Counted from the first letter of the stretch, positions 3,938-50,952 are shown. The stretch is DNA of 64,000 nt from a virus (IMGVR_UViG_3300046167_000724); one strand, 5' to 3'. The notes: generated by a model not told the origin, from the letters alone. Translations and numbers: made by a program.

Positions 3938-4324
3938 ATGCAAATTGAAGTATCAAACGGCGAAATCATGGATAAGTATACTATCCTTGAAATTAAGCTG
4001 GAACAGATTAAAGACGAGGCTAAACTTATTAATGTTCGCAATGAACATAATTCATTAAAGCCAGTCGTTGCTCAAATTTATGCAAATAGCCCAGATGGCT
4101 TAGATGCACTACACCAAGATTTACTTAACGTTAATAAAACACTTTGGAACATTGAAGACCTTATTCGCGATTGTGAGCGTGAAAAGAACTTTGGTGAAGA
4201 TTTTGTTGAATTAGCACGTTCAGTATATTATACAAACGACGACAGAGCAGACGTCAAAAAACAAATCAATACCCTAACGGGTTCAGCATTAGTCGAAGAG
4301 AAATCTTACCAAGACTACGCTTAA
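3938..4324 (+). CDS. DUF6165-like protein
   Basis: IEVSNGEIMDKYTILEIK...LWNIEDLIR...ELARSVYYTND pattern, often found beside glycosylation genes. Confidence 0.65.
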   Translation: MQIEVSNGEIMDKYTILEIKLEQIKDEAKLINVRNEHNSLKPVVAQIYANSPDGLDALHQDLLNVNKTLWNIEDLIRDCEREKNFGEDFVELARSVYYTNDDRADVKKQINTLTGSALVEEKSYQDYA

Positions 4325-4345
4325 TTAAAAAAAGACAAATCTATT

Positions 4346-4630
4346 ATGTCAAGCGACGCAGATAAATTTTGTCACCTATTTTCTAATTTCAGTTTAGTGA
4401 TTAGATGTAAAGGTAAAGCATCGAGACATGCGGCAACTGAAGAAGATATTACTGATATCAGTAAAGCGCAATTGAAAACTTTACTTAAGAAAGCCATTGA
4501 AGAATACAAACAGGCTAAAAAGTTATACAAACATTACAAAATATCTAAAGAAGAACTTTATGATTATGAATGGCGTGTATTTGAACTTAAAACTGAAATA
4601 GACAGGTCAAGTAATGAAGGAGCGCTTTAA
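4346..4630 (+). CDS. Hypothetical protein
   Basis: 94-aa ORF followed by a hairpin. Confidence 0.6.
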   Translation: MSSDADKFCHLFSNFSLVIRCKGKASRHAATEEDITDISKAQLKTLLKKAIEEYKQAKKLYKHYKISKEELYDYEWRVFELKTEIDRSSNEGAL

Positions 4631-4640
4631 GCGCTCCTTC
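4616..4640 (+). terminator. Perfect 10-bp hairpin, probable terminator
   Basis: gaaggagcgc-tttaa-gcgctccttc; no clear U-tract. Confidence 0.5.
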
Positions 4641-4660
4641 GTTGATATATAATATAATAG

Positions 4661-4809
4661 TATTGATACACATATTTAGGCAACTGATTAAGTCGGCACA
4701 AATATGGCCTTCGCAATCCAATTAAATTGAATACATCAGATCAATCCAAGAGGCCCCCGTCTCTGATATAATTGTTCAATGTCGATTTACATCAGTTGCT
4801 GTATCAATA
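4661..4809 (+). ncRNA. Candidate structured non-coding RNA (long rod with possible pseudoknot)
   Basis: Nested pairings 4661-4670/4800-4809, 4680-4688/4791-4799, 4690-4698/4780-4788, 4726-4733/4773-4780, 4735-4740/4762-4767; GATATATAA motif at 4644; strand inferred from that motif. Confidence 0.5.
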
Positions 4810-4824
4810 AAAAAATAAACTATA

Positions 4825-5142
4825 GTGGAAAGTATTATTAATACATATTTTGGTGAATGGGGTGCTTGGGTAATAGGTGCTCTTTTAGCACTAGCAGTAA
4901 AAGACAGTGTTAGTCAATTATGGAGTGGATTTAGATTCCTAATGGGTACTGATTTTGATGTAGATGATATTGTATATCTTAATGGTACTAAGAAAGCACG
5001 TATTGTAAGACAAGGGATATATAAGACAACATTTTATTTGTACGACCACGAAAGAAAGTTTATTGTACCAAACAATAGACTTTGGTCATTGAATATAGAA
5101 AAACAACTTCCAAAATACGAAGAACATAAAGATGAGATTTAA
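4825..5142 (+). CDS. Small membrane protein, MscS-like beta-domain fragment
   Basis: GTG start; one TM helix then GFRFLMGTDFDVDDIVYLNG...IVRQGIYKTTF...IVPNNRL. Confidence 0.5.
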   Translation: MESIINTYFGEWGAWVIGALLALAVKDSVSQLWSGFRFLMGTDFDVDDIVYLNGTKKARIVRQGIYKTTFYLYDHERKFIVPNNRLWSLNIEKQLPKYEEHKDEI

Positions 5143-6541
5143 ATTATTTGAAGAATTTGTCAATGAAGGCATAAATGATCCAGGCATTCTTAAAGCCTTT
5201 TTCATGGCAGGCGGACCAGGTTCTGGTAAATCATATGTAGCATCAGAGCTATTTGGTTTTCCAAAAGCGGCGACATCATCAGTATCATATGCTACGGGCT
5301 TAAAGCTTGTTAATAATGATAATGCTTTTGAGAAAGCAATTAAAGATGCTGGTTATGACATAGGTAAACTAGCAGATTATGCAAAAGACCCTGAAGTATG
5401 GTCTAAAGTAATGGCGATTAGAGATAAAGCTAAAGGCTTAACTAGAAGAATGCAAGGTAATTATATTTCTGGTCGTTTAGGTCAGGTGATTGATGGTACT
5501 GGTAAAGACTTTAAAAAGATTGCGGGAATGCGTAAGATGTATGCTGACTTGGGTTATGATACTTATATGGTTTTTGTTAACACATCACTTGAAACTGCTT
5601 TAGAAAGAAATAGAATGAGACCTCGTAAACTAGACGATGGTATGGTTGAAAAGATGTGGAAAGCTGTTCAAGATAACTTAGGTAAGTTTCAAAAAGAGTT
5701 TGGTTCTGTCAATATGATTATTGTTGATAATAATGCAACTGATGATGAAGAAGGTATTTTAGACCAGATTGAAAAGCAAATTATGAAAAGAATCAAAGAT
5801 CCAGTTAATAACGTATTGGGTAAAAGATGGATTTCAGATAACTCACCAGAGAACAGAAATAAAAACCAACCATTTGGTGTTAGTGAATCTCTTAATGAGG
5901 GTCTAAAGATTACAGCTAAAATGCCAGCTACAATGAAGAAGTTTATTAACGACTTAGCTAAAGACAGACCGAATACTTGGTCAAACGAGTTAACAGATCT
6001 AGCTAACTCAATTATCGGTGCACACAGAGAGTACGACTTAGACCTAGCTGATTCAGACAAGGTTGGACCACAATACATTAATATTAGAGAGCTACCTGTT
6101 TCAGAGCTAACTCCAAGGTCAATTGACATGATCAATAAGTTATGGAATGACATGGGTGACCAAGCTAAAGAAACTATTTATGATGATTACTCACACTGGT
6201 TTAGAGTAAGTAAGAAAGACAGGCCTCTTTACGGTATGTACGAATCAGCAGTTAACGAAGCTAAGGTAACCAAAAAAGACTTTGATAAAGTAGTTAAGGT
6301 ATTAAGTAAATCAAAATACCCATTTACTATCATGCTTGTTCCAAAATGGAATGAAATCGATATTATTACAGGTCAAGATTCACCAGATGATATTGGTGAT
6401 GACATTATTAAAAGATTAGATTCAGCAGGTTTAAATTGGGGTGGAAACTCAGGTATTACTATTTCAGGAGATTCATCAAATTATTCTAGGAGAGAATATG
6501 ATGAGATTGCAAAAATAAACGGCGGGCACAAACATTATTAA
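5132..6541 (+). CDS. P-loop kinase (Zeta-toxin/AAA_33-like) fused to extra domains; N-terminal CTS-like tag
   Basis: KAFFMAGGPGSGKS Walker A, VIDGTG, VFVNTSLETALERN; begins MRFKLFEEFVNE. Confidence 0.75.
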   Translation: MRFKLFEEFVNEGINDPGILKAFFMAGGPGSGKSYVASELFGFPKAATSSVSYATGLKLVNNDNAFEKAIKDAGYDIGKLADYAKDPEVWSKVMAIRDKAKGLTRRMQGNYISGRLGQVIDGTGKDFKKIAGMRKMYADLGYDTYMVFVNTSLETALERNRMRPRKLDDGMVEKMWKAVQDNLGKFQKEFGSVNMIIVDNNATDDEEGILDQIEKQIMKRIKDPVNNVLGKRWISDNSPENRNKNQPFGVSESLNEGLKITAKMPATMKKFINDLAKDRPNTWSNELTDLANSIIGAHREYDLDLADSDKVGPQYINIRELPVSELTPRSIDMINKLWNDMGDQAKETIYDDYSHWFRVSKKDRPLYGMYESAVNEAKVTKKDFDKVVKVLSKSKYPFTIMLVPKWNEIDIITGQDSPDDIGDDIIKRLDSAGLNWGGNSGITISGDSSNYSRREYDEIAKINGGHKHY

Positions 6542-16728: not shown

Positions 16729-19700
16729 ATGTTTGATGATATCTCCGGCATTAATGATGGACCCAACGGTTCAAAACTGCCATTACTTAGAAAAATACTA
16801 AAGCGTCCTTTATCTCATGAAGAGATGGACTACAACCTAAGATTAATTCACAACATCTTGGACGATTACCCTATTTTAGGTGGTGGCGTTGAAGGTGAAG
16901 TTATTGCTTCTGATTTAGGTAAATCACTAGTACTTAAAGAATACCCGGCAAGTTCGGGTGATTGGGTATGGGTATTTGAAGATATTTCAGGTGGTAACGG
17001 TACATCAGGTGTTAATGGATCTGCTGGTTCTTCAGGTACTGATGGTACTTCGGGTTCTTCTGGTACAGATGGTACTTCAGGAACTTCAGGTTTGACACCA
17101 ACTGCAGGTGGTTCACCTTATACATATAGATATGAAATAAATAATCCAGTGGGTTCGCCTCAGGTAACTCCAACTGCGGCTACAATTTCATTTAATACAC
17201 AATCTGGTGAATTATACATACCATTCATTGATCAAAACGGTATCGACCATTCTAATAGAATATGGATGATATTAAATCAAGACGCATTTGATCTTGATAT
17301 TATTAGTTTTACGTCAGCTAATGTGTATGACCATTATGAATTTGGTGCTACTAATTACTACACAGCTAATTACGGTGGTTTTGATTTTTATGTTGTTGAA
17401 GTATTACAATTTAATGGTAGTGTTACTTCAAATCCAGGCGGTAATGCTTCTGGCTTCGCAAATCATGCGGGTACAATGCCACAGGGTATTGTAAATCCAG
17501 AATGTATTGTAACTTTTGATAAGTGGATTGATCCAGCACAGGGTGTTGCGGGTTCAGATGGTACTTCAGGTACAGACGGTTCTTCAGGTTCAAGTGGTTC
17601 ATCAGGTTCTTCAGGTACAGATGGTACTTCAGGTACAGACGGTTCATCGGGTTCTTCAGGGACAGATGGTACTTCAGGTACAGATGGTGCTACAGGTTCA
17701 TCGGGTTCAAGTGGTACAGATGGTACTTCAGGAACTGATGGTTCTTCAGGCTCATCAGGGACAGATGGTTCTTCAGGAACAGATGGTACTTCAGGTACAG
17801 ACGGTATAGACGGTTCTTCAGGTTCAAGTGGTACAGATGGTACTTCAGGGACAGATGGTATAGACGGTTCATCGGGTTCTTCAGGGACAGATGGTACTTC
17901 AGGTACAGATGGTACTTCAGGTACAGATGGTACTTCAGGTACAGATGGTGCTACAGGTTCATCAGGTTCTTCAGGTACAGATGGTACTTCAGGTACAGAT
18001 GGTGCTACAGGTTCATCAGGTTCTTCAGGTACAGATGGTACTTCAGGTACAGATGGTGCTACAGGTTCATCAGGTTCTTCAGGTACAGATGGTGCTACAG
18101 GTTCATCAGGTTCTTCAGGTACAGATGGTACTTCAGGTACAGATGGTGCTACAGGTTCATCAGGTTCTTCAGGTACAGATGGTACTTCAGGAACAGATGG
18201 TATAGACGGTTCTTCAGGTTCTTCGGGGACAGATGGTACTTCAGGGACAGATGGAACTAATGGTTCTTCAGGTACTTCTGGAACAAGTGGTGTAGACGGT
18301 GCAGATGGTGTAGGTTCTGGTAGAATTTACTACTTTAACGATTCAATTATAGAGGTAGCAAGTACTAAACAACTTTCAATGGATCCTACGTCAGGCGCTG
18401 AAAGAACAGTTAGTGTGTCAGCTATTCAAAATACAGATACAAAAATAGAAGAGTACATTTCAACTCCGTTTGATTTCACAGTCATACCCGGTGGTGTACA
18501 AAGATTCTTCTTATGGATGACTAAAGAGAATCAAAACGACGATATAGAAGTTTATGTGGTTCTTAAAGTAACTGATAACTCAGGTAACGTACTTGCAACA
18601 GCAGGTACGTCACAGGCTGTAAATATCGGTTGGAATAATAATAATACAACTCCAGTATTTACGGAAGTAGATATTACTCTTGCGTCGGCTCCAGTTGCTA
18701 TTGGCCAAAGAATGCTAGTAGAAGTATGGACTAAAAATAACGTAAATCAAGATCGTGATGTTACTTTCTATACAGAAGGTGCTGCACATTATTCATATGT
18801 AATAACGACACTTTCATTAATTTCAGGGACTTCAGGTACAAGTGGTACATCAGGGACTTCAGGGACTTCAGGGACTTCAGGTACAGATGGCGCTACAGGT
18901 TCATCAGGTTCTTCAGGGACAGATGGTACTTCAGGTACAGATGGTGCTACAGGTTCATCGGGTTCAAGTGGTACAGATGGTACTTCAGGAACTGATGGTT
19001 CTTCGGGGACAGATGGTACTTCGGGGACAGATGGTACTTCAGGTACAGATGGTATAGACGGTTCATCAGGTTCTTCAGGGACAGATGGTACTTCAGGTAC
19101 AGATGGTATAGACGGTTCTTCAGGTTCAAGTGGTACAGATGGTACTTCAGGTACAGATGGTACTTCAGGAACTGATGGTTCTTCAGGAACTGATGGTTCT
19201 TCAGGAACTGATGGAACTAATGGTACTTCGGGCACAGATGGTTCATCAGGCTCATCAGGCACAGATGGAACTAATGGTTCTTCAGGAACAGATGGTTCAT
19301 CAGGTTCTTCAGGTACTGATGGTACATCAGGTACTGATGGTGCTACAGGTTCATCGGGTTCAAGTGGTACAGATGGTACTTCAGGAACTGATGGTTCTTC
19401 AGGCTCATCAGGGACAGATGGTTCTTCAGGAACAGATGGTATAGACGGTTCTTCAGGAACAGATGGAACTAATGGTTCTTCAGGGACAGATGGTACTTCA
19501 GGTACAGATGGTATAGACGGTTCTTCAGGTTCAAGTGGTACAGATGGTACTTCAGGTACTGATGGTTCATCAGGTACTGATGGCTCGAGCGGCACGGATG
19601 GTACTTCAGGTACTGATGGTATAGATGGAACTTCAGGTACAGATGGTACTTCAGGTACATCGGGTACTTCAGGTACAGATGGTACTTCAGGTTCAAGCGG

Positions 19701-22700
19701 TACAGACGGTTCTTCAGGTACAGATGGTGCTACAGGTACTTCAGGTACAGATGGTACTTCAGGTACAGATGGAACTAATGGTTCTTCAGGGACAGATGGA
19801 ACTAATGGTTCTTCAGGAACAGATGGTATAGATGGTTCTTCAGGAACGGACGGAACTAATGGTTCTTCAGGAACGGACGGAACTAATGGTTCTTCAGGAA
19901 CAGATGGTTCTTCAGGAACGGACGGTACTTCAGGAACGGACGGTACTTCAGGTACAGATGGTTCAAGTGGTACGGATGGTACTTCAGGTACAGATGGTGT
20001 AGATGGTACTTCAGGTACTGATGGTACATCAGGAACTTCAGGCTCATCAGGAACAGATGGTTCTTCGGGTTCTTCAGGAACTAATGGTTCATCAGGAACA
20101 GATGGTTCTTCGGGTACTTCAGGTACAGATGGCTCAAGTGGTACGGATGGTACTTCAGGTACAGATGGTATAGATGGTACTTCAGGTACTGATGGTACAT
20201 CGGGCACTTCAGGTTCTTCAGGTACAAGCGGTACGGATGGTACTTCAGGTACAGATGGTACTTCAGGTTCAAGTGGTACTGATGGTACTTCAGGTACTTC
20301 AGGTACATCAGGTACAAACGGGACTTCTGGTACAGATGGTACATCGGGTACAAGTGGTACATCAGGTACATCAGGTACAGATGGTTCAAGCGGTACTGAT
20401 GGTACTTCAGGAACTTCAGGAACAGATGGAACTTCAGGCACGGACGGTACTTCAGGAACTTCAGGTTCAAGTGGTACATCAGGTTCAAGTGGTACATCAG
20501 GTACGTCAGGTACGGATGGAACTTCAGGAACGTCAGGTTCAAGTGGTACGGACGGTTCAAGTGGTACAGATGGCACAAGTGGTACAGATGGTACTTCAGG
20601 TACAGATGGCACTTCAGGTACATCAGGTTCTTCGGGAACAGATGGTACAAGTGGTACGTCAGGTTCTTCAGGAACAGATGGTACAAGTGGTACTGATGGT
20701 ACGAGTGGAACGGACGGTTCAAGTGGTACAAGCGGTACAGATGGTACTTCAGGTACAGATGGTACTTCAGGTACGTCAGGTACTGATGGTACTTCAGGTA
20801 CTTCAGGAACATCAGGTTCTTCAGGAACAGATGGTACGTCAGGAACAGATGGCTCTTCAGGCACATCAGGTACGGATGGAACTTCAGGAACAGATGGCAC
20901 ATCGGGTACATCAGGTACTGATGGTACATCGGGTACATCGGGTACATCGGGTACATCAGGTACATCAGGTTCTTCGGGAACAGATGGTACGTCGGGTACA
21001 GACGGTACATCAGGTACTTCAGGTACAGATGGTACAAGTGGAACATCAGGTTCTTCGGGAACAGATGGTTCTTCAGGTACGTCAGGAACTTCGGGTACGT
21101 CAGGATCTTCGGGTACGTCAGGTTCTTCTGGAACAGATGGGACTTCAGGTACTGATGGTACAAGTGGTACTTCAGGTTCTTCAGGCACAAGTGGTTCAAG
21201 CGGTACTGATGGTACTTCAGGTACTTCAGGGTCTTCAGGTACATCAGGTTCTTCTGGAACAGATGGGACTTCAGGTACAGATGGATCTTCGGGAACTTCA
21301 GGTACAGATGGTTCTTCAGGAACAGATGGTACATCAGGTACATCAGGTTCTTCAGGAACTTCAGGCTCATCAGGAACATCAGGCACATCAGGTTCTTCTG
21401 GAACAGATGGTACTTCTGGAACAGACGGTACTTCAGGAACTTCAGGTTCAAGTGGTACAGACGGAACAAGTGGTACATCAGGTTCTTCAGGGACTTCGGG
21501 AACATCAGGTTCTTCAGGAACTTCAGGTTCATCAGGTACAAGTGGCTCAAGCGGTACGGATGGTACTTCAGGAACTTCGGGTTCAAGTGGTACAGACGGA
21601 ACAAGTGGTACATCAGGTTCTTCAGGGACTTCGGGAACATCAGGTTCTTCAGGAACTTCAGGTTCTTCTGGAACGGATGGTACTTCAGGAACAGACGGCA
21701 CATCAGGAACAGACGGTACATCAGGAACAAGTGGTACTTCAGGTACTTCAGGTTCTTCAGGTACTTCAGGTACTGATGGTACTTCAGGAACTTCAGGTTC
21801 ATCGGGTACAAGTGGTTCAAGTGGTACGGATGGTACTTCAGGAACAGACGGTACGTCTGGTACAGATGGTACTTCAGGAACTTCAGGTTCTTCGGGAACA
21901 TCAGGAACATCAGGTTCATCAGGCACATCAGGAACATCAGGTTCATCAGGTACAGATGGTACAAGTGGTACAGACGGTACTTCAGGTACAAGTGGTTCTT
22001 CAGGAACTTCAGGTACTGACGGTACTTCGGGTACAAGTGGAACATCAGGAACATCAGGGACATCAGGAACATCAGGTTCATCAGGTACAGATGGTACTTC
22101 AGGTACAGATGGTACTTCAGGTACAAGTGGTTCATCAGGTACAAGTGGTTCATCGGGTACATCAGGTACATCAGGTACTAGCGGTTCATCGGGAACTTCA
22201 GGTTCATCAGGTACTTCAGGTACAGATGGTACTTCAGGTACAGATGGTACATCAGGAACTTCAGGCTCATCAGGAACAAGTGGTTCATCAGGAACTTCAG
22301 GTTCAAGTGGTACAAGTGGTTCATCGGGAACTTCAGGTTCATCAGGTACTTCAGGTACAGATGGTACTTCAGGTACAGATGGTACATCAGGAACTTCAGG
22401 TTCATCAGGAACAAGTGGTTCATCGGGTACATCAGGAACAAGTGGTACTTCAGGTTCTTCTGGTACTTCAGGTTCATCAGGAACAGATGGTACTTCAGGA
22501 ACGGATGGTACTTCAGGTACATCAGGTACTTCTGGTTCTTCAGGGACTAGCGGTTCTTCAGGAACATCAGGCACATCAGGCACTAGCGGTTCTTCTGGTA
22601 CTTCAGGTTCATCAGGAACAGATGGTACTTCAGGAACAGATGGTACATCAGGTACTTCTGGTTCTTCAGGGACTAGCGGTTCTTCAGGAACATCAGGCAC

Positions 22701-24771
22701 ATCAGGCACTAGCGGTTCATCGGGAACTTCAGGTTCATCAGGAACAGATGGTACTTCAGGAACGGATGGTACATCGGGTACTTCTGGCTCATCAGGCACA
22801 TCAGGTTCTTCTGGTACAAGTGGTTCTTCAGGAACTTCAGGTTCAAGTGGTACAAGTGGTACAAGTGGCTCATCGGGAACAGACGGAACTTCAGGAACAG
22901 ATGGAACTTCAGGTACAAGTGGCTCATCAGGAACATCAGGCTCATCAGGAACTTCAGGTTCAAGTGGTACGAGCGGTACATCAGGTTCATCAGGTACTTC
23001 AGGTACAGACGGTACATCAGGTACAAGTGGATCAAGCGGTACATCAGGTACTTCGGGTACTTCAGGTACTTCTGGGTCTTCAGGTACATCAGGTTCAAGT
23101 GGTACGAGTGGCACATCAGGTTCTTCAGGTACTGATGGTACTTCAGGCACAGACGGAACTTCAGGTACAGACGGAACTTCTGGAACATCAGGTTCATCTG
23201 GAACATCAGGTTCATCAGGGACTTCAGGTTCATCGGGAACTTCAGGAACATCAGGTTCAAGTGGTACAGATGGTACTTCAGGAACAAGTGGGTCATCAGG
23301 AACAAGTGGGTCATCAGGAACTTCAGGTACTTCAGGTACATCAGGTACAAGTGGCTCGAGCGGGACAAGTGGAACTTCAGGTACAAGTGGCACGGACGGT
23401 ACATCAGGTACTGATGGTACTTCAGGTACTGATGGTACATCAGGAACTTCAGGTTCTTCAGGAACTTCGGGTTCTTCGGGGACTTCAGGTTCATCAGGAA
23501 CTTCAGGTACTTCTGGTTCTTCAGGTACAGATGGTACTTCAGGAACTTCTGGTTCATCAGGAACTTCAGGTTCATCAGGAACTTCAGGAACTTCAGGCTC
23601 ATCAGGAACTTCAGGTTCTTCGGGAACTTCAGGTTCATCAGGTACAAGTGGTTCAAGTGGTACGGATGGTACATCAGGAACAGATGGTACTTCTGGAACG
23701 GACGGTACTTCAGGAACTTCAGGAACTTCAGGAACTTCAGGAACTTCAGGTACGGACGGCACTTCAGGGACGGATGGTTCATCAGGAACTTCTGGTACGT
23801 CTGGTACTTCTGGTACGGACGGCACATCAGGAACAAATGGCACATCAGGTACAAGTGGCACATCAGGTACAAGTGGTACATCAGGTACAAGTGGATCAAG
23901 CGGTACATCGGGTACTTCAGGTACAGATGGAACTTCTGGTACGTCTGGTACTTCTGGTACAAATGGTACTTCAGGAACGAGTGGTACATCGGGAACAAGC
24001 GGTACAAGTGGATCAAGCGGTACATCGGGTACTTCAGGTACATCAGGTGACCCGGGTGACCCAGGGACGTCAGGTACATCAGGAACATCAGGACTACCGG
24101 GTGATCCAGGTGACCCAGGAACATCAGGTACATCAGGTACTTCAGGTACAGAAGGAGATAATTGGACATCTTATGGATCAAATCCTGCCGGTCCTGGCGC
24201 AAATGTGGGTGACCAACATTTAAACACAACAACTGGTGAAGTATTCCAATGGAATGGAAGCGCGTGGGTATCAACTGGTAATATTAAAGGAGCTGATGGT
24301 AATAACGGTACATCAGGAACTTCAGGTACTTCAGGTACAGATGGTGTTTCATATACTGAAGTTTCTATTAATTCAATACCTGCTTCACTAAGTATAACTA
24401 ACTTTATTAATAATGGTAACTCATGGCGTGACGCGTTTGTAGTAGTACCTACAGAATATGATGGATGGTATATACATGGTTACGTTGTAGCATACGGTGA
24501 TGCATGGCCTTCAGCAAATAATACATTTACTGTTGAACTTAGAAATCAAGTTGCACCAACTGCTCAGGTTGTTGTAGCATCTTTTAATTATTCACACCCT
24601 TCAGCAACTAGGGCGTGGGGTGATTATATTACGCCAGTTCAAGTTACGGCTGGATATACTATAAACATTGCGTTTAATTCAAACGGTGGGATTCCTGCTG
24701 GTGGTAATGCTTCGGGTTATACTGCAACTTTATTATTACTTCCAACTTCTAATAACCCATTCACACCATAA
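16729..24771 (+). CDS. Giant collagen-like (Gly-X-Y) fibre protein
   Basis: 2680 aa; GTS/GSS/GTD/GAT/GID/GTN triplets separated by small globular domains; C-terminal beta-rich head. Confidence 0.85.
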   Translation: MFDDISGINDGPNGSKLPLLRKILKRPLSHEEMDYNLRLIHNILDDYPILGGGVEGEVIASDLGKSLVLKEYPASSGDWVWVFEDISGGNGTSGVNGSAGSSGTDGTSGSSGTDGTSGTSGLTPTAGGSPYTYRYEINNPVGSPQVTPTAATISFNTQSGELYIPFIDQNGIDHSNRIWMILNQDAFDLDIISFTSANVYDHYEFGATNYYTANYGGFDFYVVEVLQFNGSVTSNPGGNASGFANHAGTMPQGIVNPECIVTFDKWIDPAQGVAGSDGTSGTDGSSGSSGSSGSSGTDGTSGTDGSSGSSGTDGTSGTDGATGSSGSSGTDGTSGTDGSSGSSGTDGSSGTDGTSGTDGIDGSSGSSGTDGTSGTDGIDGSSGSSGTDGTSGTDGTSGTDGTSGTDGATGSSGSSGTDGTSGTDGATGSSGSSGTDGTSGTDGATGSSGSSGTDGATGSSGSSGTDGTSGTDGATGSSGSSGTDGTSGTDGIDGSSGSSGTDGTSGTDGTNGSSGTSGTSGVDGADGVGSGRIYYFNDSIIEVASTKQLSMDPTSGAERTVSVSAIQNTDTKIEEYISTPFDFTVIPGGVQRFFLWMTKENQNDDIEVYVVLKVTDNSGNVLATAGTSQAVNIGWNNNNTTPVFTEVDITLASAPVAIGQRMLVEVWTKNNVNQDRDVTFYTEGAAHYSYVITTLSLISGTSGTSGTSGTSGTSGTSGTDGATGSSGSSGTDGTSGTDGATGSSGSSGTDGTSGTDGSSGTDGTSGTDGTSGTDGIDGSSGSSGTDGTSGTDGIDGSSGSSGTDGTSGTDGTSGTDGSSGTDGSSGTDGTNGTSGTDGSSGSSGTDGTNGSSGTDGSSGSSGTDGTSGTDGATGSSGSSGTDGTSGTDGSSGSSGTDGSSGTDGIDGSSGTDGTNGSSGTDGTSGTDGIDGSSGSSGTDGTSGTDGSSGTDGSSGTDGTSGTDGIDGTSGTDGTSGTSGTSGTDGTSGSSGTDGSSGTDGATGTSGTDGTSGTDGTNGSSGTDGTNGSSGTDGIDGSSGTDGTNGSSGTDGTNGSSGTDGSSGTDGTSGTDGTSGTDGSSGTDGTSGTDGVDGTSGTDGTSGTSGSSGTDGSSGSSGTNGSSGTDGSSGTSGTDGSSGTDGTSGTDGIDGTSGTDGTSGTSGSSGTSGTDGTSGTDGTSGSSGTDGTSGTSGTSGTNGTSGTDGTSGTSGTSGTSGTDGSSGTDGTSGTSGTDGTSGTDGTSGTSGSSGTSGSSGTSGTSGTDGTSGTSGSSGTDGSSGTDGTSGTDGTSGTDGTSGTSGSSGTDGTSGTSGSSGTDGTSGTDGTSGTDGSSGTSGTDGTSGTDGTSGTSGTDGTSGTSGTSGSSGTDGTSGTDGSSGTSGTDGTSGTDGTSGTSGTDGTSGTSGTSGTSGTSGSSGTDGTSGTDGTSGTSGTDGTSGTSGSSGTDGSSGTSGTSGTSGSSGTSGSSGTDGTSGTDGTSGTSGSSGTSGSSGTDGTSGTSGSSGTSGSSGTDGTSGTDGSSGTSGTDGSSGTDGTSGTSGSSGTSGSSGTSGTSGSSGTDGTSGTDGTSGTSGSSGTDGTSGTSGSSGTSGTSGSSGTSGSSGTSGSSGTDGTSGTSGSSGTDGTSGTSGSSGTSGTSGSSGTSGSSGTDGTSGTDGTSGTDGTSGTSGTSGTSGSSGTSGTDGTSGTSGSSGTSGSSGTDGTSGTDGTSGTDGTSGTSGSSGTSGTSGSSGTSGTSGSSGTDGTSGTDGTSGTSGSSGTSGTDGTSGTSGTSGTSGTSGTSGSSGTDGTSGTDGTSGTSGSSGTSGSSGTSGTSGTSGSSGTSGSSGTSGTDGTSGTDGTSGTSGSSGTSGSSGTSGSSGTSGSSGTSGSSGTSGTDGTSGTDGTSGTSGSSGTSGSSGTSGTSGTSGSSGTSGSSGTDGTSGTDGTSGTSGTSGSSGTSGSSGTSGTSGTSGSSGTSGSSGTDGTSGTDGTSGTSGSSGTSGSSGTSGTSGTSGSSGTSGSSGTDGTSGTDGTSGTSGSSGTSGSSGTSGSSGTSGSSGTSGTSGSSGTDGTSGTDGTSGTSGSSGTSGSSGTSGSSGTSGTSGSSGTSGTDGTSGTSGSSGTSGTSGTSGTSGSSGTSGSSGTSGTSGSSGTDGTSGTDGTSGTDGTSGTSGSSGTSGSSGTSGSSGTSGTSGSSGTDGTSGTSGSSGTSGSSGTSGTSGTSGTSGSSGTSGTSGTSGTDGTSGTDGTSGTDGTSGTSGSSGTSGSSGTSGSSGTSGTSGSSGTDGTSGTSGSSGTSGSSGTSGTSGSSGTSGSSGTSGSSGTSGSSGTDGTSGTDGTSGTDGTSGTSGTSGTSGTSGTDGTSGTDGSSGTSGTSGTSGTDGTSGTNGTSGTSGTSGTSGTSGTSGSSGTSGTSGTDGTSGTSGTSGTNGTSGTSGTSGTSGTSGSSGTSGTSGTSGDPGDPGTSGTSGTSGLPGDPGDPGTSGTSGTSGTEGDNWTSYGSNPAGPGANVGDQHLNTTTGEVFQWNGSAWVSTGNIKGADGNNGTSGTSGTSGTDGVSYTEVSINSIPASLSITNFINNGNSWRDAFVVVPTEYDGWYIHGYVVAYGDAWPSANNTFTVELRNQVAPTAQVVVASFNYSHPSATRAWGDYITPVQVTAGYTINIAFNSNGGIPAGGNASGYTATLLLLPTSNNPFTP
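17545..18320 (+). repeat. 9-bp-period coding repeat block 1 (collagen-like)
   Basis: ggtacttca/ggtacagat/ggttcttca units. Confidence 0.9.
18826..24150 (+). repeat. 9-bp-period coding repeat block 2 (about 5.3 kb)
   Basis: Gly in every third position throughout as far as I read it. Confidence 0.9.
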
Positions 24772-35366: not shown

Positions 35367-35440
35367 CCGATTGATTACTATGTAAATATAGGCAAAATAG
35401 TTGACATAAAAAAACTTTAGGTCAACTATTTTCAAACTAT
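35367..35440 (-). promoter_or_regulatory. Class-1 (early) promoter repeat, long form
   Basis: Full copy, TTACATAGTAA variant. Confidence 0.75.
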
Positions 35441-35845
35441 TTTACAGGGATAGGTCCGTCAGGAAGGGTGAAACTGTTTAAGTGCTCTTGGAAAACCTCA
35501 GGGCTCTCTTCAAACTCAAACTTGCTGAGGTCACCGTTGCCGATGATAGGAGCAAATCCGTAACGAGCCGCGCCGAACATGCCAACCTCATCGAATCCCA
35601 ATAGGGTATACATCTCACCGTCTTCAGTCTTCGCTACAAGCTCACAGCCGGCAGGAATACCACCGCGGTAGCCTTGCATATAGATAGGAAGGAACTCAAA
35701 GCCGATAAGGTCTGCTCGGACCCCATGCTTGCGCAGTGTCTTTTGGAAATTCACCAGGCATGCCCTTGAATGAGAATTCTTTACCGTTTTGTTTAGCAAT
35801 GAAGATAGCCTCGTTCATTAACTGAGTTGGAATTTGTACTTTCAT
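35437..35845 (-). pseudogene. Frameshifted early gene (one extra base near 35745) or assembly error
   Basis: ATG at 35845 (MKVQIPTQL...GEF) is one base out of frame with the downstream frame (QKTLRKHG...PVK); span 409 nt. Confidence 0.6.
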
Positions 35846-35867
35846 AAGTTGTTCTTTGTGGGCAGTG

Positions 35868-35941
35868 CCCGATTGATTACATAGTAAATATAGGCAAAAT
35901 AGTTGACATAAAAAAGTTTTTAGCCAACTATTTTCAAATTA
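35868..35941 (-). promoter_or_regulatory. Class-1 (early) promoter repeat, long form
   Basis: Full copy. Confidence 0.75.
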
Positions 35942-36327
35942 TTTTACTGCAACTGAATGTGCACCTAAACTACCTTTCCAAATTGGAGCGCCTTCATATA
36001 CACGTGAGGTCAACTTAAATTCAAAACGACGTGAGTGGCCAACTTCAGGATTCTCTTCAGCAATATCAATGATCTCGTATGCTTCAGCAACATATGTCGC
36101 AACCTTCTCACCATGTAAGATACCCGATACTGTTACAGGGTAAACCTTTTTCAAAGGCTTCTATTAATGCAGCCTCTTCTTCTTTATAGAAGTACCATGC
36201 CCGGGCAATACACCCTTTAAGGCTACGACCAGGTGAATTCACCTTTAGTGTTATAGCTACGATTGACACTAACGAAAATGTTAACACCTTCGTTAAACTT
36301 GTTTGGATTGTAAATAACTTTACTCAT
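35939..36327 (-). pseudogene. Frameshifted early gene (two extra bases) or assembly error
   Basis: MSKVIY...VNRSYNTKG / PGRSLKGCIARAW...FEKG / PVTVSGILHG...AVK lie in three successive frames; span 389 nt. Confidence 0.6.
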
Positions 36328-36348
36328 GATTATTTCTTTAGTAGGTTT

Positions 36349-36420
36349 CCCCGATTGATTACATATGTAATATAGGCAATTCCGGCGACATAAAAAAACT
36401 TTTAGGCAATTATTTTCAAA
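36349..36420 (-). promoter_or_regulatory. Class-1 promoter repeat, leftward member of the divergent pair
   Basis: Variant copy with TTACATATGTAA. Confidence 0.7.
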
Positions 36421-36490
36421 ATAAAATGCAAGTAAGTACCTTATATTATATTACAGAACTGAAAAAAGTTTCAAAAAAGTTTGCCTTTTA

Positions 36491-36540
36491 TTTTTTTATG
36501 TCAACTATTTTGCCTATATTTACTATGTAATCAATCGGGA
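36491..36540 (+). promoter_or_regulatory. Class-1 promoter repeat, rightward member of the divergent pair
   Basis: tttttttatgtcaactattttgcctatatttactatgtaatcaatcgg. Confidence 0.75.
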
Positions 36541-36565
36541 ATCACTCCCACTAAAAGAAAATCAT

Positions 36566-36883
36566 ATGACTAATAACGAACTTTGTGAACTGCTTGCCCA
36601 CGGAAACCTTCAAGAGGCTAAACCTATTATTGAAGACCGCAAGCAAATGCCTGAAAGTCGTCTTCTTATAATTCGTGAGATGTTAAGTGACTATCCACAT
36701 GTCTATATCGAACACGAACCAATGAGTGAAAGTAATTGGTACTACATATGGCGTAAAGAGAATATCAAAGGACCACACGATTGGAACCGTAGTGATTGCT
36801 TAATGCAGTTCTATTGGAAAGCTGGTAGCTATAACGCTGAAGGTGTTCACAATCTATACGACGAATGGGGCACAGCCCTTTAA
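36566..36883 (+). CDS. Hypothetical early protein
   Basis: ORF after repeat. Confidence 0.7.
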   Translation: MTNNELCELLAHGNLQEAKPIIEDRKQMPESRLLIIREMLSDYPHVYIEHEPMSESNWYYIWRKENIKGPHDWNRSDCLMQFYWKAGSYNAEGVHNLYDEWGTAL

Positions 36884-36960
36884 AATAATTTGAAAATAAA
36901 TGGCTAAAAACTTTTTTATGTCGTTTATTTTGCCTATATTTACTATGTAATCAATGGGGA
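36881..36960 (+). promoter_or_regulatory. Class-1 promoter repeat, long form
   Basis: Full ~80-bp copy. Confidence 0.75.
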
Positions 36961-36983
36961 TCACCCTGGAAATTAAAAATATT

Positions 36984-37199
36984 ATGAATAAAAGAAACCG
37001 TCATCCCAATTACGTCAATGGCTACGAAGAGAAGATTGGCTACTGGCTTTACAAGGTCAACCAAGCTGTTGAGCAAGGTAGTGCTGAGAATCTCGAGTAT
37101 GCTAACCAGCGTCTTGTGTACTTCTTACAACGCCAGGAGACCTGGAAGAAAGAGACTGGCAACTTAAATGAGTATAAAATCAAAACTATCTACGGGTAA
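36984..37199 (+). CDS. Hypothetical early protein
   Basis: Start moved to MNKRNRHP downstream of the repeat. Confidence 0.65.
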   Translation: MNKRNRHPNYVNGYEEKIGYWLYKVNQAVEQGSAENLEYANQRLVYFLQRQETWKKETGNLNEYKIKTIYG

Positions 37200-37438
37200 T
37201 GAACAAAGAATTATTAGCAATCGAAGAGGAGCTTAACCAAATCGTGGTTAACCTAAGGCTAGAGAGCCTATACGACGAACCAGTTGGTGGATACTTACTT
37301 AATGCAGGTAGCCCAGCAGCGGACTTCTTATTAGAGTCTACTCCAAGTGAGCGTGAATTCATCCTTCATAAATTGGCACCTGAGCTAATAGTAGAAGATG
37401 TATATGAAGGTAATCATATAATTCTAAATCTTAAATAA
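37199..37438 (+). CDS. Hypothetical early protein
   Basis: TAATG coupling. Confidence 0.65.
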   Translation: MNKELLAIEEELNQIVVNLRLESLYDEPVGGYLLNAGSPAADFLLESTPSEREFILHKLAPELIVEDVYEGNHIILNLK

Positions 37439-37441
37439 ATT

Positions 37442-37759
37442 ATGGCATTATTAAAAAATAACAAAGGAGAGTACAACTACCAGTTTAACTGGGTTGATGA
37501 GAACTACAGCGTATGTGGATTCAACAGCGTATGGGCTACTAACAAGCGTGAGGCCCTTAAGAAGGCTAAAGCTATGGAGACCGAAGCACATTGGGCACTA
37601 TACGACGGTAACAAGTATGTAACGGTACCTGAGGAGGTTATAGGCGAGGGCCATTGCTTCCGTATGAAAGGTATGTATGTTCAAGTGGAATCTATGTATA
37701 AGGCCACTGCAGAGCAACGTGACCGTATGGACGAGATTGGCTGGATGATGACGAACTAA
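37442..37759 (+). CDS. Hypothetical early protein
   Basis: 105-aa ORF. Confidence 0.7.
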   Translation: MALLKNNKGEYNYQFNWVDENYSVCGFNSVWATNKREALKKAKAMETEAHWALYDGNKYVTVPEEVIGEGHCFRMKGMYVQVESMYKATAEQRDRMDEIGWMMTN

Positions 37760-37774
37760 AATTGTTAGTAACTA

Positions 37775-37827
37775 TTAGGCTAAAAGCTTTTTTATATCAA
37801 CTATTTTGCCTATATTTATAGTATAAT
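37775..37827 (+). promoter_or_regulatory. Class-1 promoter repeat
   Basis: ggctaaaagctttttttatatc...ttttgcctatatttatagt. Confidence 0.7.
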
Positions 37828-37842
37828 AAAAGAGAAAGCAAT

Positions 37843-38151
37843 ATGAACATTAAAGAACAAATCGAAAACTGGATTCCAGTAGCCCAGGCTAAATGTAACA
37901 GCTATTACTCAGAACAGTGGCAATCACAAGCTCCCGAGCTCACTATCAAATATGGACGTAAGTATGCCAAGATTATGGATGATGGCTCAACATGGGGCTT
38001 CATAGCCTTAACAGATGATCCTAGTAAAGGACAAGTTACAGGGGACCTTTTAAAGCCGGCTTCGTGGGCAACACCCACAAGACACTCGAGAGGTAACATA
38101 TTAAACGGTACAGCAGTGTACGATCAGTACGGACCAGCTTACTTAAAATAA
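37843..38151 (+). CDS. Conserved hypothetical phage protein
   Basis: GRKYAKI...WGFI...GDLLKPASWATP...RGNI motif. Confidence 0.75.
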   Translation: MNIKEQIENWIPVAQAKCNSYYSEQWQSQAPELTIKYGRKYAKIMDDGSTWGFIALTDDPSKGQVTGDLLKPASWATPTRHSRGNILNGTAVYDQYGPAYLK

Positions 38152-38220
38152 TTTGAAAATAAATGACTAAAAGCTTTTTTATGTCAATTATTTTGCCTAT
38201 ATTTACTATGTAATCAATCG
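38146..38220 (+). promoter_or_regulatory. Class-1 promoter repeat, long form
   Basis: Full copy. Confidence 0.75.
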
Positions 38221-38228
38221 TAATAAAT

Positions 38229-38465
38229 ATGAACTATATCAAATCATTCATCAATCGTAACCAGGGTCTCACAACCTTAATGGCTACCTTAATCATTTTA
38301 GCAACTGGGTGTATTCTATTGCCTATTGCAGTAACCCTAGCATGTAAGGCTCTCTTATACATGATTAACCAACCAGCTAACTCATTATACATTATAGGTG
38401 CCTACCTATTTGGTATATTAAGTAATGAGCTTGCAGGTGCGCTTGATAAAAAAGTTTCAAAATAA
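38229..38465 (+). CDS. Small membrane protein (2 TM)
   Basis: Two hydrophobic stretches. Confidence 0.65.
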   Translation: MNYIKSFINRNQGLTTLMATLIILATGCILLPIAVTLACKALLYMINQPANSLYIIGAYLFGILSNELAGALDKKVSK

Positions 38466-38526
38466 TTGACTAAAAGTTTTTTTATGTCAATCTTTTTGCC
38501 TATATTTACTATGTAATCAATCGGGG
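38459..38526 (+). promoter_or_regulatory. Class-1 promoter repeat
   Basis: Full copy. Confidence 0.75.
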
Positions 38527-48405: not shown

Positions 48406-48410
48406 TTTTA

Positions 48411-48446
48411 TATTTTTTTATGTCAAATCTTTTTTGTATATTTACA
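48411..48446 (+). promoter_or_regulatory. Class-1 promoter repeat (short variant)
   Basis: ttttttatgtc...tttttgtatatttac. Confidence 0.6.
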
Positions 48447-48448
48447 AC

Positions 48449-48592
48449 ATGTCAGAAGAACTAATGGTAATGCAGGTACAGTACGACGATGCTGTCAATG
48501 CTGGAAATACTAAAGAAGCTAAAGAGCTTCTTAAAATTATTAATGGTATGCAACACACACATACTAAAGGTAAATATAAATACAATGATTAA
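48449..48592 (+). CDS. 47-aa hypothetical protein
   Basis: Start moved to MSEELMV after the repeat. Confidence 0.55.
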   Translation: MSEELMVMQVQYDDAVNAGNTKEAKELLKIINGMQHTHTKGKYKYND

Positions 48593-48995
48593 AATAACGG
48601 GTAAACGTACACATAAAACTGCTATTAACAAAAAGGTTAAAGCGATTGCAGATGCACTTGGTATTACATGTGATGTTAACGTTTATTTTATGGACCATAC
48701 GTCACCTGATAAGTATGGGTTTGCCGCTGAAATAATGGGTAGTCAATACGTTTGTATTTTTAAAGACTGTCCAGAAGATAAACTCGGTGACGTTATTTCA
48801 CATGAAATGGTACATATATTACAAACTTTAAGAGGTGATCTTAAACATGATTATATGAATCGTACTTTTTATTGGAAGGGTGAAAAATGGGACAATGAAA
48901 GATGTGAGTCTGTTAACTATTATGATAGACCTTGGGAAGCTGAAGCAAAAAAACTTGAAAAAAAGTTAGCCGAAAACTTTTTTATGTCAAATTAA
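48585..48995 (+). CDS. Zinc metallopeptidase-like protein
   Basis: Start moved to MIKITG; HEMVH; YYDRPWEAEA. Confidence 0.7.
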   Translation: MIKITGKRTHKTAINKKVKAIADALGITCDVNVYFMDHTSPDKYGFAAEIMGSQYVCIFKDCPEDKLGDVISHEMVHILQTLRGDLKHDYMNRTFYWKGEKWDNERCESVNYYDRPWEAEAKKLEKKLAENFFMSN

Positions 48996-49020
48996 TTGCC
49001 TATATTTACATAGTAATCAG
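48965..49020 (+). promoter_or_regulatory. Class-1 promoter repeat
   Basis: Full copy overlapping the end of the upstream ORF. Confidence 0.75.
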
Positions 49021-49054
49021 TTGAGAATATATAATTAAAATAAATCAAAAGACA

Positions 49055-49294
49055 ATGGCAAAGAAAAAGATTTCAGACGCAGACTTAATCGACGCACTAG
49101 AAGGACTAGATACGACGTATGACCGTCTAAGTACAGATGGTCAAAAGACAATGGATGCATTTTTTACAAAAGCAGAAAAGTCAATTAATCAAAGAGACTT
49201 AGATAAGTTTATTAAAGACTTAGAGTATGATGTACAACGCATGAATTCAGACGGTGTATATTACTATGAAATTCTTAAAAACGCAAAGTTATAA
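49055..49294 (+). CDS. Hypothetical early protein
   Basis: ORF after repeat. Confidence 0.65.
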   Translation: MAKKKISDADLIDALEGLDTTYDRLSTDGQKTMDAFFTKAEKSINQRDLDKFIKDLEYDVQRMNSDGVYYYEILKNAKL

Positions 49295-49298
49295 TATT

Positions 49299-49318
49299 AG
49301 GACCTTAGGGTCCTTTTA
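49299..49318 (+). terminator. Intrinsic terminator
   Basis: aggacc-ttag-ggtcct-ttt. Confidence 0.6.
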
Positions 49319-49326
49319 TTATTTTG

Positions 49327-49396
49327 AAAATAATTTGAAAATAATTGGCTAAAAGTTTTTTTATGTCGTAAACTTTGCCTATATTTATAGTATAAC
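49327..49396 (+). promoter_or_regulatory. Class-1 promoter repeat, long form
   Basis: Full copy. Confidence 0.75.
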
Positions 49397-49435
49397 AATG
49401 AGACAATGCTGTCTCTCTTAATTTAATTAACAAAC

Positions 49436-50569
49436 ATGGTAACATTATCAGACAACGCAATCCAATCGCGCAAGTTGGAAACATTAAACGCACAAGCACT
49501 ACGCAGAACAGTAGCAGCTCGTGAAATTGAAGTTATTGACGAGAAGACAATCTTCTACAATGGCTCTCAAATCAGAATTACTAGTGAGGCTTTTAAATCA
49601 CTAATGAAAATGACGGGAATGAGTCAAACATTCATTAAGAAGTTTGAACAACTCTTCAACCCTAAAGCTAAGGCGCAATTCATTAATACAATGAAAAACG
49701 CAATGGCTTCTAACGCAGGTAGTATGCCAAACATTACAATGGTACTTAATCCTGTTAACAAAGTAATTGTTGCATTCACAAAAGATGCTTCAGAACTTAT
49801 TTCTAACTCAAACTTTGTTGAGAATGCAGAACGTATTCTTAATGGTGGTAACTTTGGTGTTACAAACTGGACGACAGACCCAACTACGGGTATTGTAACT
49901 CTTAACGCCATTAAAGAAGGTGCAACATTCTCAGTTGCAGGTGATGAGAAAGATGTATTTACTGCGGGTATTACAATGAAGAACTCACCTATTACTGGAT
50001 TTCAAGTTTCACCTTACGTAAATCGTCTTTGGTGTACTAATGGTCTTACTACCGCACTCGCACAAGACAAGTACAATATGACAAACCTAAGTGAAAAATC
50101 GCTTACTCAATTCAACGAGTACATTCAAGGACTCACACGTCGCAACTTTGTGCCTGCTGAATTTAATGAATTAGTAAACAAAGCACGTAAAACACCGGCT
50201 TCTTTAAATGAGCTTAATCGTGCAACTAACGCAATTAAAAGTGCAGGTGCTGGTGATAGATCTGGACAGTGGATACCTCTTCACGAAAACCTACTTGAAT
50301 ACTCACGTGCAGGTATTGATACTAAAGATTTCAATAATGCAGAACTTAAGAATGCAGAATCTGACCAATCGGTTTGGAGTGTTGTAAATTCAATGACTCA
50401 CTTTGCGTCACATGGTGAAGACTTAGTTGATGGCTTTGAAAGTCACAAAGGTACTGACCTTATGGTTAGAGCTGGAAACTTATTAGGTCGTGCATGGGAC
50501 TTAGGTAATCGTGTTGCGTCACCTTTCAAAGGTTTGAATTCATACCAACATGGTGAAGTACTTAATTAA
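49436..50569 (+). CDS. DUF932-like early protein
   Basis: RLWCTNG motif; SVWSVVNSMTHFASH C-terminal helix. Confidence 0.55.
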   Translation: MVTLSDNAIQSRKLETLNAQALRRTVAAREIEVIDEKTIFYNGSQIRITSEAFKSLMKMTGMSQTFIKKFEQLFNPKAKAQFINTMKNAMASNAGSMPNITMVLNPVNKVIVAFTKDASELISNSNFVENAERILNGGNFGVTNWTTDPTTGIVTLNAIKEGATFSVAGDEKDVFTAGITMKNSPITGFQVSPYVNRLWCTNGLTTALAQDKYNMTNLSEKSLTQFNEYIQGLTRRNFVPAEFNELVNKARKTPASLNELNRATNAIKSAGAGDRSGQWIPLHENLLEYSRAGIDTKDFNNAELKNAESDQSVWSVVNSMTHFASHGEDLVDGFESHKGTDLMVRAGNLLGRAWDLGNRVASPFKGLNSYQHGEVLN

Positions 50570-50593
50570 TATAGTGCTATCATAATATAATAT

Positions 50594-50622
50594 AAGGGGT
50601 GTGCGGAAGTATACCCCTTTTT
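50594..50622 (+). terminator. Intrinsic terminator
   Basis: aaggggtgt-loop-atacccctttt. Confidence 0.7.
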
Positions 50623-50625
50623 ATT

Positions 50626-50690
50626 TTAAAATAATTGGCTAAAAGTTTTTTTATGTCGTTTATTTTGCCTATATTTACATAGTAATCAAA
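50626..50690 (+). promoter_or_regulatory. Class-1 promoter repeat
   Basis: Full copy. Confidence 0.75.
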
Positions 50691-50718
50691 TGGAAGTATT
50701 AACCTTAAATTTTATATT

Positions 50719-50952
50719 ATGCCTATTACTTATTTAGACCGTAAACCCTTTTTCAACGGAATGCAAATCGACGACATCGAAATCGATGGAGTAGACACTC
50801 GTGACTATCCTGATTTTTGCGATGCTTACATTAACAACTTTTGGCTTGTTGATGGCGATGAGGTTCGTGAAGCTACTGAGGCTGAACTCGATGATATTAA
50901 TGATAACGAACAAGACTTCGTTTACGAACAAGTCTGGGACTCTTTATTCTAA
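50719..50952 (+). CDS. Conserved acidic hypothetical phage protein
   Basis: IEIDGVDTRDYPDFCDAYI...EAELD. Confidence 0.75.
   Translation: MPITYLDRKPFFNGMQIDDIEIDGVDTRDYPDFCDAYINNFWLVDGDEVREATEAELDDINDNEQDFVYEQVWDSLF

Follow-up and report, generated by a model that had tools for sequence, protein, structure and literature searches.

The window analysed here, a stretch of 64,000 nucleotides taken at its full length, belongs to an uncultured marine T4-like myophage, and the sequencing runs that contain the stretch are seawater metagenomes. By the AAA_33 protein alone, its nearest named relatives are Pelagibacter phage HTVC008M and Methylophilales phage Melnitz. Gene order around the locus was read from contigs carrying homologues of an MscS-like protein, and it is fixed: GlmS, DUF6165, a 94-aa gene, a variable slot, the MscS-like gene and an AAA_33 kinase-like gene. 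The slot of the window contains no gene; it holds an element that is flanked as follows.

4613-4643, plus strand: upstream hairpin at the end of the 94-aa gene, an inverted repeat with 15-nt arms, 93% complementary
4645-4652, plus strand: ATATATAA motif, a putative promoter element, perhaps of late type; 8 nt separate it from P0, the outermost helix of the element
4661-4809, plus strand: the element, 149 nt, between two genes
4810-4824, plus strand: A-rich spacer of 15 nt from the hairpin base to the GTG, with no Shine-Dalgarno-like sequence visible
4825-5142, plus strand: MscS-like gene, 105 aa, GTG start, MscS beta-domain (PF00924, E = 5.8e-05)

The start of the MscS-like gene agrees with that in the relative L009, and it overlaps the stop of the slot gene whenever a slot gene exists. 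Its product has 122 homologues and is conserved across more than 120 marine phage contig clusters; made up of a single hydrophobic stretch at the N-terminus and the MscS beta-domain alone, it is too short for the usual channel. At the other edge of the slot, the hairpin at 4613-4643 carries the TAA stop of the 94-aa gene (4628-4630) in its loop. This hairpin is present in every relative, with a C-G to U-A compensatory change in L051; it is terminator-like without a U tract and was not called by the terminator scan. An earlier note on this DNA had described the element as beginning just after a hairpin and a motif, and both are there, the motif as GATATATAA at 4644-4652.

In the relatives the slot (window 4631-4824) is hypervariable and is occupied by PAP2, Amidase_2, DUF5675, PAP2 plus amidase, PAP2 plus DUF5675, or no gene at all. 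Its contents were compared in L009, L053, L060, L064, L068, L165, L171 and L253-L261, and the slot of L009 consists of two genes. The element stands alone in the slot in the window, in L048-L050 and L150 (about 98% identity), and in L051, L052 and L057-L059 (89%).

According to the predicted fold, the element is a rod of the order P0-P1-P2-P2b-P3, with about 42 bp in 149 nt and the following parts.

4661-4670 with 4800-4809, plus strand: P0, the outermost helix, 5' arm tattgataca and 3' arm tgtatcaata, 10 bp
4680-4688 with 4791-4799, plus strand: P1, 5' arm GCAACUGAU, 9 bp
4690-4698 with 4780-4788, plus strand: P2, 5' arm AAGUCGGCA, 9 bp, two of them G-U
4699-4725, plus strand: one-sided 5' bulge of 27 nt between P2 and P2b
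4726-4733 with 4773-4780, plus strand: P2b, 5' arm AUUGAAUA, 8 bp including one U-G
4735-4740 with 4762-4767, plus strand: P3, 5' arm AUCAGA, 6 bp
4741-4761, plus strand: apical loop of 21 nt, with the invariant block AAGAGGCCCCCGUC at 4748-4761
4762-4809, plus strand: all 3' arms, from P3 to P0

All five nested helices claimed by the earlier note are found in the sequence, and the start of P0 puts the start of the element at 4661. T4780 is common to P2 and P2b, so one of these two helices is one pair shorter. The plus-strand RNA fold of 4661-4809 has an energy of -42.4 kcal/mol versus -24.4 +/- 3.6 in 200 dinucleotide shuffles, none of which is as stable (z = -4.99); for the minus-strand fold, z is -2.9. 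The tip differs in the single-sequence MFE structure (AUCA/UGAU plus GAGGC/GUCUC), but comparative data support the atcaga/tctgat helix, P3, as its probable form. As previously claimed, no ORF is encoded: stops occur in all three plus-strand frames, and 1-nt indels relative to L051 exclude a conserved ORF on either strand. A minus-strand ORF of 44 aa (4587-4721) was discarded, being broken by these 1-nt indels in L051.

Homologues were picked via the block GGCCCCCGT upstream of the MscS-like gene, in many loci. The 18 distinct sequences belong to a single clade of uncultured marine myophages and lie at the same locus every time; from P1 to P1 they fall into length classes of 91, 94, 97, 100, 114, 118, 120 and 123 nt. 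Folded individually, every one of them forms P1, P2 and P3. P2b occurs in L164 and is missing in the 91-100-nt classes, while P0, which retains nine of its ten pairs in L051, is confined to the non-coding, window-type form. A first model, R1, built from the 91-nt class, was too narrow and missed the window copy; with the model R2, used instead, the 64-kb window gives one match and no fetched relative locus gives more than one.

The covariation test was run on a MAFFT alignment of the 18 sequences (A6) with P1, P2 and P3 as the structure (22 pairs). Standard pairs fill 93.3% of the cells versus 79.2% +/- 1.1 in column shuffles, where cell counts overstate the independent events, the sequences being related and from one narrow clade; the control in which partners are slid by 1-3 columns preserves relatedness and is still clear, with pairing down to 20-42% of the cells. 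Double-sided changes are seen at 15 of the 22 pairs, and the covariation score is 0.538 versus 0.274, with none of 500 shuffles reaching 0.538. In P1, 99.4% of the cells pair and five of nine pairs change on both sides (e.g. C-G/U-A, A-U/G-C, U-A/C-G/A-U); in P3, 94% of the cells pair, with double-sided changes at five of seven pairs; the equivalents of P2 in the shorter classes covary as well. The earlier note had itself named compensatory changes in homologues as the test of its proposal, and the outcome is positive for P1, P2 and P3. At the level of sequence comparison, we regard a real, covarying phage RNA structure outside all Rfam families as supported.

The only unpaired block conserved throughout the 18 sequences is the apical loop. 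Its columns AAG-N-GGCCCCCGUC are invariant in 18 of 18, coding and non-coding copies alike, and abut the 3' arm of P3 directly (in L171 they lie one base before it). A 10-nt C-rich apical stretch is invariant and shown on a covarying stem, within a conserved block of 14 nt in all; GGCCCCCGTC has a single occurrence in the 64-kb window. The 5' bulge of the window copy contains GGCC (4706-4709) and CGCAAU (4712-4717), and the latter motif, CGCAA(U/C) in J2/3, is present in 11 of the 18 members and absent from seven sequences of 91 nt. A pseudoknot had been proposed between GGCCUU in the bulge (4706-4711) and GAGGCC in the terminal loop (4750-4755). Both lie where they were said to lie, but the six-pair contact is present in the window lineage only; across the family, just a 3-bp core of GCC in the bulge with GGC in the loop is compatible, in 16-18 of 18 members via C-to-U changes, and these changes are one-sided, with the loop side invariant and no double-sided change.

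Database searches agree with the statement in the earlier note that the element cannot be assigned to a known family. Rfam 15 gave no match at gathering score across the 64 kb, and at E <= 10 on 4300-5200 only sub-threshold, chance-level matches were obtained; the sole one to overlap the element is the snoRNA RF01505 on the opposite strand (13.6 bits versus a gathering score of 40 bits, E = 9.5), the others falling on the neighbouring hairpin or genes. No tRNA or tmRNA was found. Neither the locus nor the MscS-like protein had a match among INPHARED phages by blastn and tblastn, and pattern scans of IMG/VR with the P1 arms or the loop block returned only chance matches in unrelated, mostly GC-rich contigs. 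A scan of genome contigs for CGCAA...AAGNGGCCCCCGTC gave at least 120 matches, with no true homologue among the matches listed and hence no hint of a host. Two publications on pelagimyophages and Melnitz mention neither the element nor the PAP2 gene nor the motif. Some members contain a Twister-like UCCCAAGC; as it is neither retained family-wide nor backed by Rfam, the resemblance was set aside.

The specific identities that had been suggested fare less well. 6S RNA has a long helix with a large two-sided bubble resembling an open promoter, and is a discrete transcript of about 180 nt. The element resembles it in its rod shape, its length of about 150 nt and the presence of an unpaired region inside the rod; unlike 6S RNA, its bulge is one-sided with a continuous 3' strand, no terminator follows or flanks it, and in relatives it lies inside ORFs. 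A 6S-like decoy is further disfavoured by the lack of an Rfam 6S match at E <= 10, and at the same threshold no Rfam model of a ribozyme or riboswitch gives a match. It is unusual for a riboswitch family to be confined to one locus and one clade. A new riboswitch or small ribozyme, acting on a ligand or on itself in the leader, would account for a structured leader with conserved unpaired nucleotides and no known family, and for a possible bulge-loop contact with a compatible 3-bp core. We consider it highly improbable nonetheless: the element is a simple rod without a multi-helix junction, its conserved unpaired part is an apical loop rather than a multi-helix ligand pocket, CGCAAU in J2/3 is lost in the 91-nt class (7 of 18), there is no expression platform in the form of a terminator or a sequestered start codon, and the element tolerates translation.

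The origin of the element is revealed by L164 and L165, where the homologous 123 nt sit inside an intact ORF of 220 aa. This ORF encodes a PAP2 phosphatase (PF01569, E = 3.5e-10; KX6RP, PSGH and SRX5HX3D present) with 46% identity to the L009 orthologue. Here the element encodes 'YYRQLVKEAKYIILAIKYKFNRPRPYQAAPVLGIDLNVSQTPTA', and GGCCCCCGUC reads as Ala-Pro-Val right after motif 1 (KX6RP). Aligned with the L164 PAP2 segment ('YYRQLV...QAAPV'), the window element has a local score of 48, against 18.1 +/- 2.4 and a maximum of 29 in 500 shuffles; read as protein, the window copy yields RQLIK, AFAIQLN and QEAPV, each in a different frame. These results show that the element is a frameshifted relic of the middle of a PAP2 gene, over the KX6RP codons. 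A functional PAP2 gene in the window is ruled out, since about 150 nt are left, stops occur in all plus-strand frames, and the PSGH and SRX5HX3D regions are missing.

An intact PAP2 gene of about 220 aa fills the same slot in about 40 more distant relatives. Over the length of the segment, the L164 protein can be aligned gap-free with 39 orthologues, so the segment is not an insertion. In these 39 other intact genes, which lack the hairpin, z ranges from -2.6 to +1.8 and is mostly about -0.5, versus -3.8 for L164; R2 has no match in any of them, and none uses the GC-rich loop codons of the element, Ala-Pro-Val being encoded by AT-rich codons. With the hairpin and the GC-rich codons both missing from the orthologues, the structure and its loop are derived, and arose in one PAP2 lineage before the gene was reduced.

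In most other relatives nothing but the hairpin segment is left of PAP2; it extends an amidase or DUF5675 gene at the N-terminus and is translated with it. These translated relics make up the 91-100-nt and 114-nt classes; they start with an ATG or TTG a few bases past ATATATA, and the frame is open through the hairpin into the enzyme domain. The lengths of 91, 94, 97 and 100 nt are separated by multiples of 3. Otherwise unrelated Amidase_2 and DUF5675 enzymes share an N-terminal extension of about 40 aa (L068:698-1501, L064:896-1501, L171:1162-2001 and similar), which is a translated PAP2 relic, in part out of the PAP2 frame. In L060 the start chosen by the gene caller falls after this extension, as sometimes happens. 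The 5' arm of P1, GCAGUUGG, gives Ser-Ser-Trp in L060 and, in another frame, Arg-Gln-Leu in L164; the Lys-Pro-Ser/Thr codons vary synonymously in the translated copies.

The non-coding lineage of the window has retained more of the PAP2 flank and the P2b region, and shares the upstream sequence 'ATATT(A)TAGGCA' with L164. On account of these retained flanks and the shared upstream sequence, it looks like a separate reduction of the PAP2 gene. Its helices are longer than those of L164 (P0 10 bp, P2 9 bp, P2b 8 bp). Near-identical elements also precede different genes, an amidase in L068 and a DUF5675 gene in L160, with the junction about 12 nt 3' of P1; this pattern shows frequent module exchange at a point just 3' of P1.

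Selection on the non-coding copy was assessed against L051. Over its 149 nt the element shows 10 substitutions (6.8%) and, in addition, two 1-nt indels, whereas 93 of 297 four-fold sites in four flanking genes differ (31%; Fisher p = 1e-9); the element thus changes at a rate about 4.5-fold below that of four-fold sites nearby. At third positions of the flanking genes, 20-33% differ, and divergent coding sequence starts right at both edges of the intergenic block. All six stem substitutions, five in P2 (with a C-G to U-A among them) and one in P2b (a U-A to U-G), preserve pairing, where about 25% would be expected to do so at random; over both helices, G-U to A-U and U-A to U-G are each seen twice, and the remaining differences lie in bulges and loop. 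Mosaic recombination could contribute to the low divergence, but a recombination tract would not make substitutions respect the structure. Taken together, the comparison shows a non-coding window copy that is under purifying selection.

These figures bear on a rival explanation, namely that the element is a decaying PAP2 fragment without function, whose peptide is selected in the relatives and whose hairpin is incidental or driven by recombination. A frameshifted PAP2 fragment is indeed what the window contains, the frame is open in relatives with indels in multiples of 3, and the variation in the KP(S/T) codons is of synonymous type. Yet we find this explanation decidedly improbable: the non-coding copy diverges by 6.8% versus 31% at neutral-like sites, every stem substitution preserves pairing, and the non-coding form exceeds the gene in the length of its helices. 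In addition, covarying changes alter amino acids, and part of the element stands in different frames across members. In the loop, GCC-CCC-GUC has zero synonymous variation, whereas the 39 PAP2 orthologues are AT-rich there. The invariance of the loop in coding and non-coding copies, the lack of synonymous variation and the frame differences in P1 indicate constraint at the level of nucleotides, not of protein.

Another rival reading is at the level of DNA. The element might be a single-stranded or cruciform structure, or a protein-binding palindrome, that serves recombination, replication or cassette exchange; we judge this quite unlikely. The changing contents of the slot (PAP2, Amidase_2, DUF5675, two genes or none) and the near-identical copies before the amidase of L068 and the DUF5675 gene of L160 would suit such a role, as would the window copy taken alone, both strands of which fold about equally well. 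Against it, the plus-strand fold is more stable than the minus-strand fold in 13 of 18 members, by a mean of 3.1 kcal/mol, and among the non-Watson-Crick cells of P1 and P3, G-U predominates over C-A. Conserved flanks that recombine by homology suffice to account for the exchange of cassettes, with no need of a special site, and the element is not repeated, as R2 recovers it once in the 64-kb window and at most once in each fetched locus. The neighbouring genes are all on the plus strand. Plus-strand stability, the excess of G-U and the plus-strand genes together favour a sense RNA over a DNA-level reading.

A possible start for such an RNA is offered by the motif ATATATAA, often (T)TGATATATAA, which has 17 copies on the plus strand versus none on the minus strand of the 64-kb window. 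Almost all copies are intergenic, upstream of plus-strand genes, and often stand just after a hairpin; plus-strand sites include 1959, 3905, 4645, 13130, 15794, 32008, 41860, 49027, 54211, 57301 and 57526. Past the upstream hairpin, ATATATA is conserved 20-27 nt before P1 in the 16 variants whose element comes directly behind the 94-aa gene; in L165 it stands ahead of the start codon of PAP2. Against a promoter role, the ATG of several genes lies just 3-6 nt past ATATATAA, so that their mRNAs would be leaderless. We take ATATATAA for a promoter-like element, perhaps the pelagimyophage late promoter. A scan for sigma-70 promoters and terminators gave sites no more numerous than in shuffles. Late promoters of pelagimyophages were sought in a published study without success (PMC7029224).

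Metatranscriptome runs X15-X18 offer sparse, low-depth contigs, one of which spans 4756-4906 and none of which lies over 4615-4755. RNA contig ends in these sparse runs fall at 4614 (a stop) and at 4756 and 4809 (starts), with no agreement between studies. The MscS-like gene is probably the first gene of the hairpin-bearing transcript.

Our preferred interpretation, to which we give an even chance, is a cis-acting sense RNA structure in the 5' leader of a late mRNA transcribed from ATATATAA, with a loop that is read by a factor. Transcription would start a few bases after ATATATAA (4645-4652), and the hairpin would stand at the very 5' end of the message that carries the MscS-like gene and the genes behind it. 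Acting in cis, it may protect this 5' end or define a processing site, and/or present its loop to an RNA-binding factor of phage or host that would set downstream expression. In L164 and L165 the hairpin lies about 330 nt inside the PAP2 gene, not at a 5' end. Because of this mid-gene position in a relative with intact PAP2, a single role as a 5'-end cap cannot cover all members, and loop recognition or processing is the more likely conserved activity, rather than mere 5' capping.

The earlier note had favoured a standalone ncRNA. Here the evidence fits a cis-acting element better, as most relatives translate the element inside an ORF, and a promoter-like motif and a start codon 15 nt away accompany it. 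In its most specific form, the standalone reading is a trans-acting sRNA, released by processing or made as a short primary transcript, whose C-rich loop would pair with a G-rich target (a ribosome-binding site or another mRNA) or titrate a protein as a decoy. An invariant loop on a covarying stem is typical of seed loops, and the 10-nt C-rich loop is of this kind; in the window lineage the element is moreover non-coding and next to a promoter-like motif. We hold a trans-acting sRNA to be unlikely all the same. No terminator follows the hairpin, an A run following on the plus strand instead, and most relatives carry the element inside a translated ORF (91, 94, 97 and 100 nt). Furthermore, a search for the complement of the loop in the 64-kb window found partners at chance level only, and Rfam gave no 6S or sRNA match.

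A related interpretation, fairly unlikely in our opinion, is that an RNA born in a gene has become a free-standing regulatory or anti-host RNA, with the C-rich loop as the recognition site of a specific factor. Candidates for this factor would be RNA polymerase (for processive antitermination in a late operon), an RNase, or a defence protein that is decoyed. If this free-standing, recognition-loop reading were true, the element would represent a new class of phage RNA whose birth from coding sequence can be traced.

As a kind, the cis-acting mRNA hairpin of phages is not new. In T4, mRNA hairpins gate late genes (gene e lysozyme, soc and gene 49), and the ompA leader forms a stabilising stem-loop at the 5' terminus; McPheeters et al. 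in 1986 and Emory, Bouvet and Belasco in 1992 are said to have described such T4 hairpins and stabilising 5' stem-loops. The element shares with them a place near a proposed transcript start, beside a promoter-like motif, in a T4-like phage. Like the T4 late-gene hairpins, it stands in a locus of cell-wall-type genes (amidase, DUF5675) and would act in cis, on translation or stability. Unlike those hairpins, it ends 15 nt before the GTG and sequesters neither start codon nor ribosome-binding site; it is also far longer than the T4 and ompA hairpins, and its invariant 14-nt loop block suggests a specific partner. We know of no sequence similarity between the element and either of them.

The put RNAs of HK022, two short stem-loops of about 70 nt, bring about processive antitermination close to the promoter. 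By description only, the element can be set beside put as a proposed promoter-proximal, cis-acting structured RNA with conserved stem-loops at the head of a long operon; unlike put, it does not consist of two short stem-loops of about 70 nt. To our knowledge, T4-type late transcription makes no use of antitermination RNAs like put. Palindromic elements of Rickettsia, reportedly described by Ogata et al. in 2000, are said to be palindromic repeats translated inside genes. The element recalls them as a hairpin segment of about 100-150 nt translated in frame within proteins, but it is no insertion relative to 39 orthologues, gives a single R2 match per window or locus, and occupies one locus always.

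The unusual feature is that a path can be documented which leads from coding sequence, through a segment both translated and structured, to a free non-coding element. The stages are visible in the relatives: a hairpin in an intact PAP2 gene, a translated extension of unrelated enzymes, and a free non-coding hairpin. Few cases are on record of a functional RNA element that, like this one, was born in coding sequence and outlived its gene; the series also cautions that odd N-terminal extensions and 'intergenic relics' may owe their retention to their RNA. The structured RNAs of the very abundant marine pelagiphage-like myophages are, as far as we know, almost unexplored, and the invariant loop offers a ready handle for pull-downs and reporter assays.

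Finally, PeSL, or promoter-early stem-loops, are reported, by Arbiol et al. in 2010, to flank shuffled genes in T4-type phages. The small hairpin followed by a promoter-like motif (4613-4652), before a hyperplastic slot with shuffled genes, resembles this arrangement. However, the PeSL-like part is the upstream hairpin with its motif and not the 149-nt element, and ATATATAA is not a sigma-70 early promoter. A second intergenic cassette of the window, ...GGCTAAAAG(C/T)TTTTTTATGTCAA...TTTTGCCTATATTTAC(T/A)ATGTAATCAAT, appears more PeSL-like. It has about 10 copies, located before short genes at about 35390-38500 and 48410-50720 (e.g. 36491-36539, 38156-38195 and 38458-38497), and it has the look of a mobile regulatory cassette of the early-promoter or PeSL type. 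A GC island is seen at 18000-24000, with 44-48% versus about 35% for the genome.
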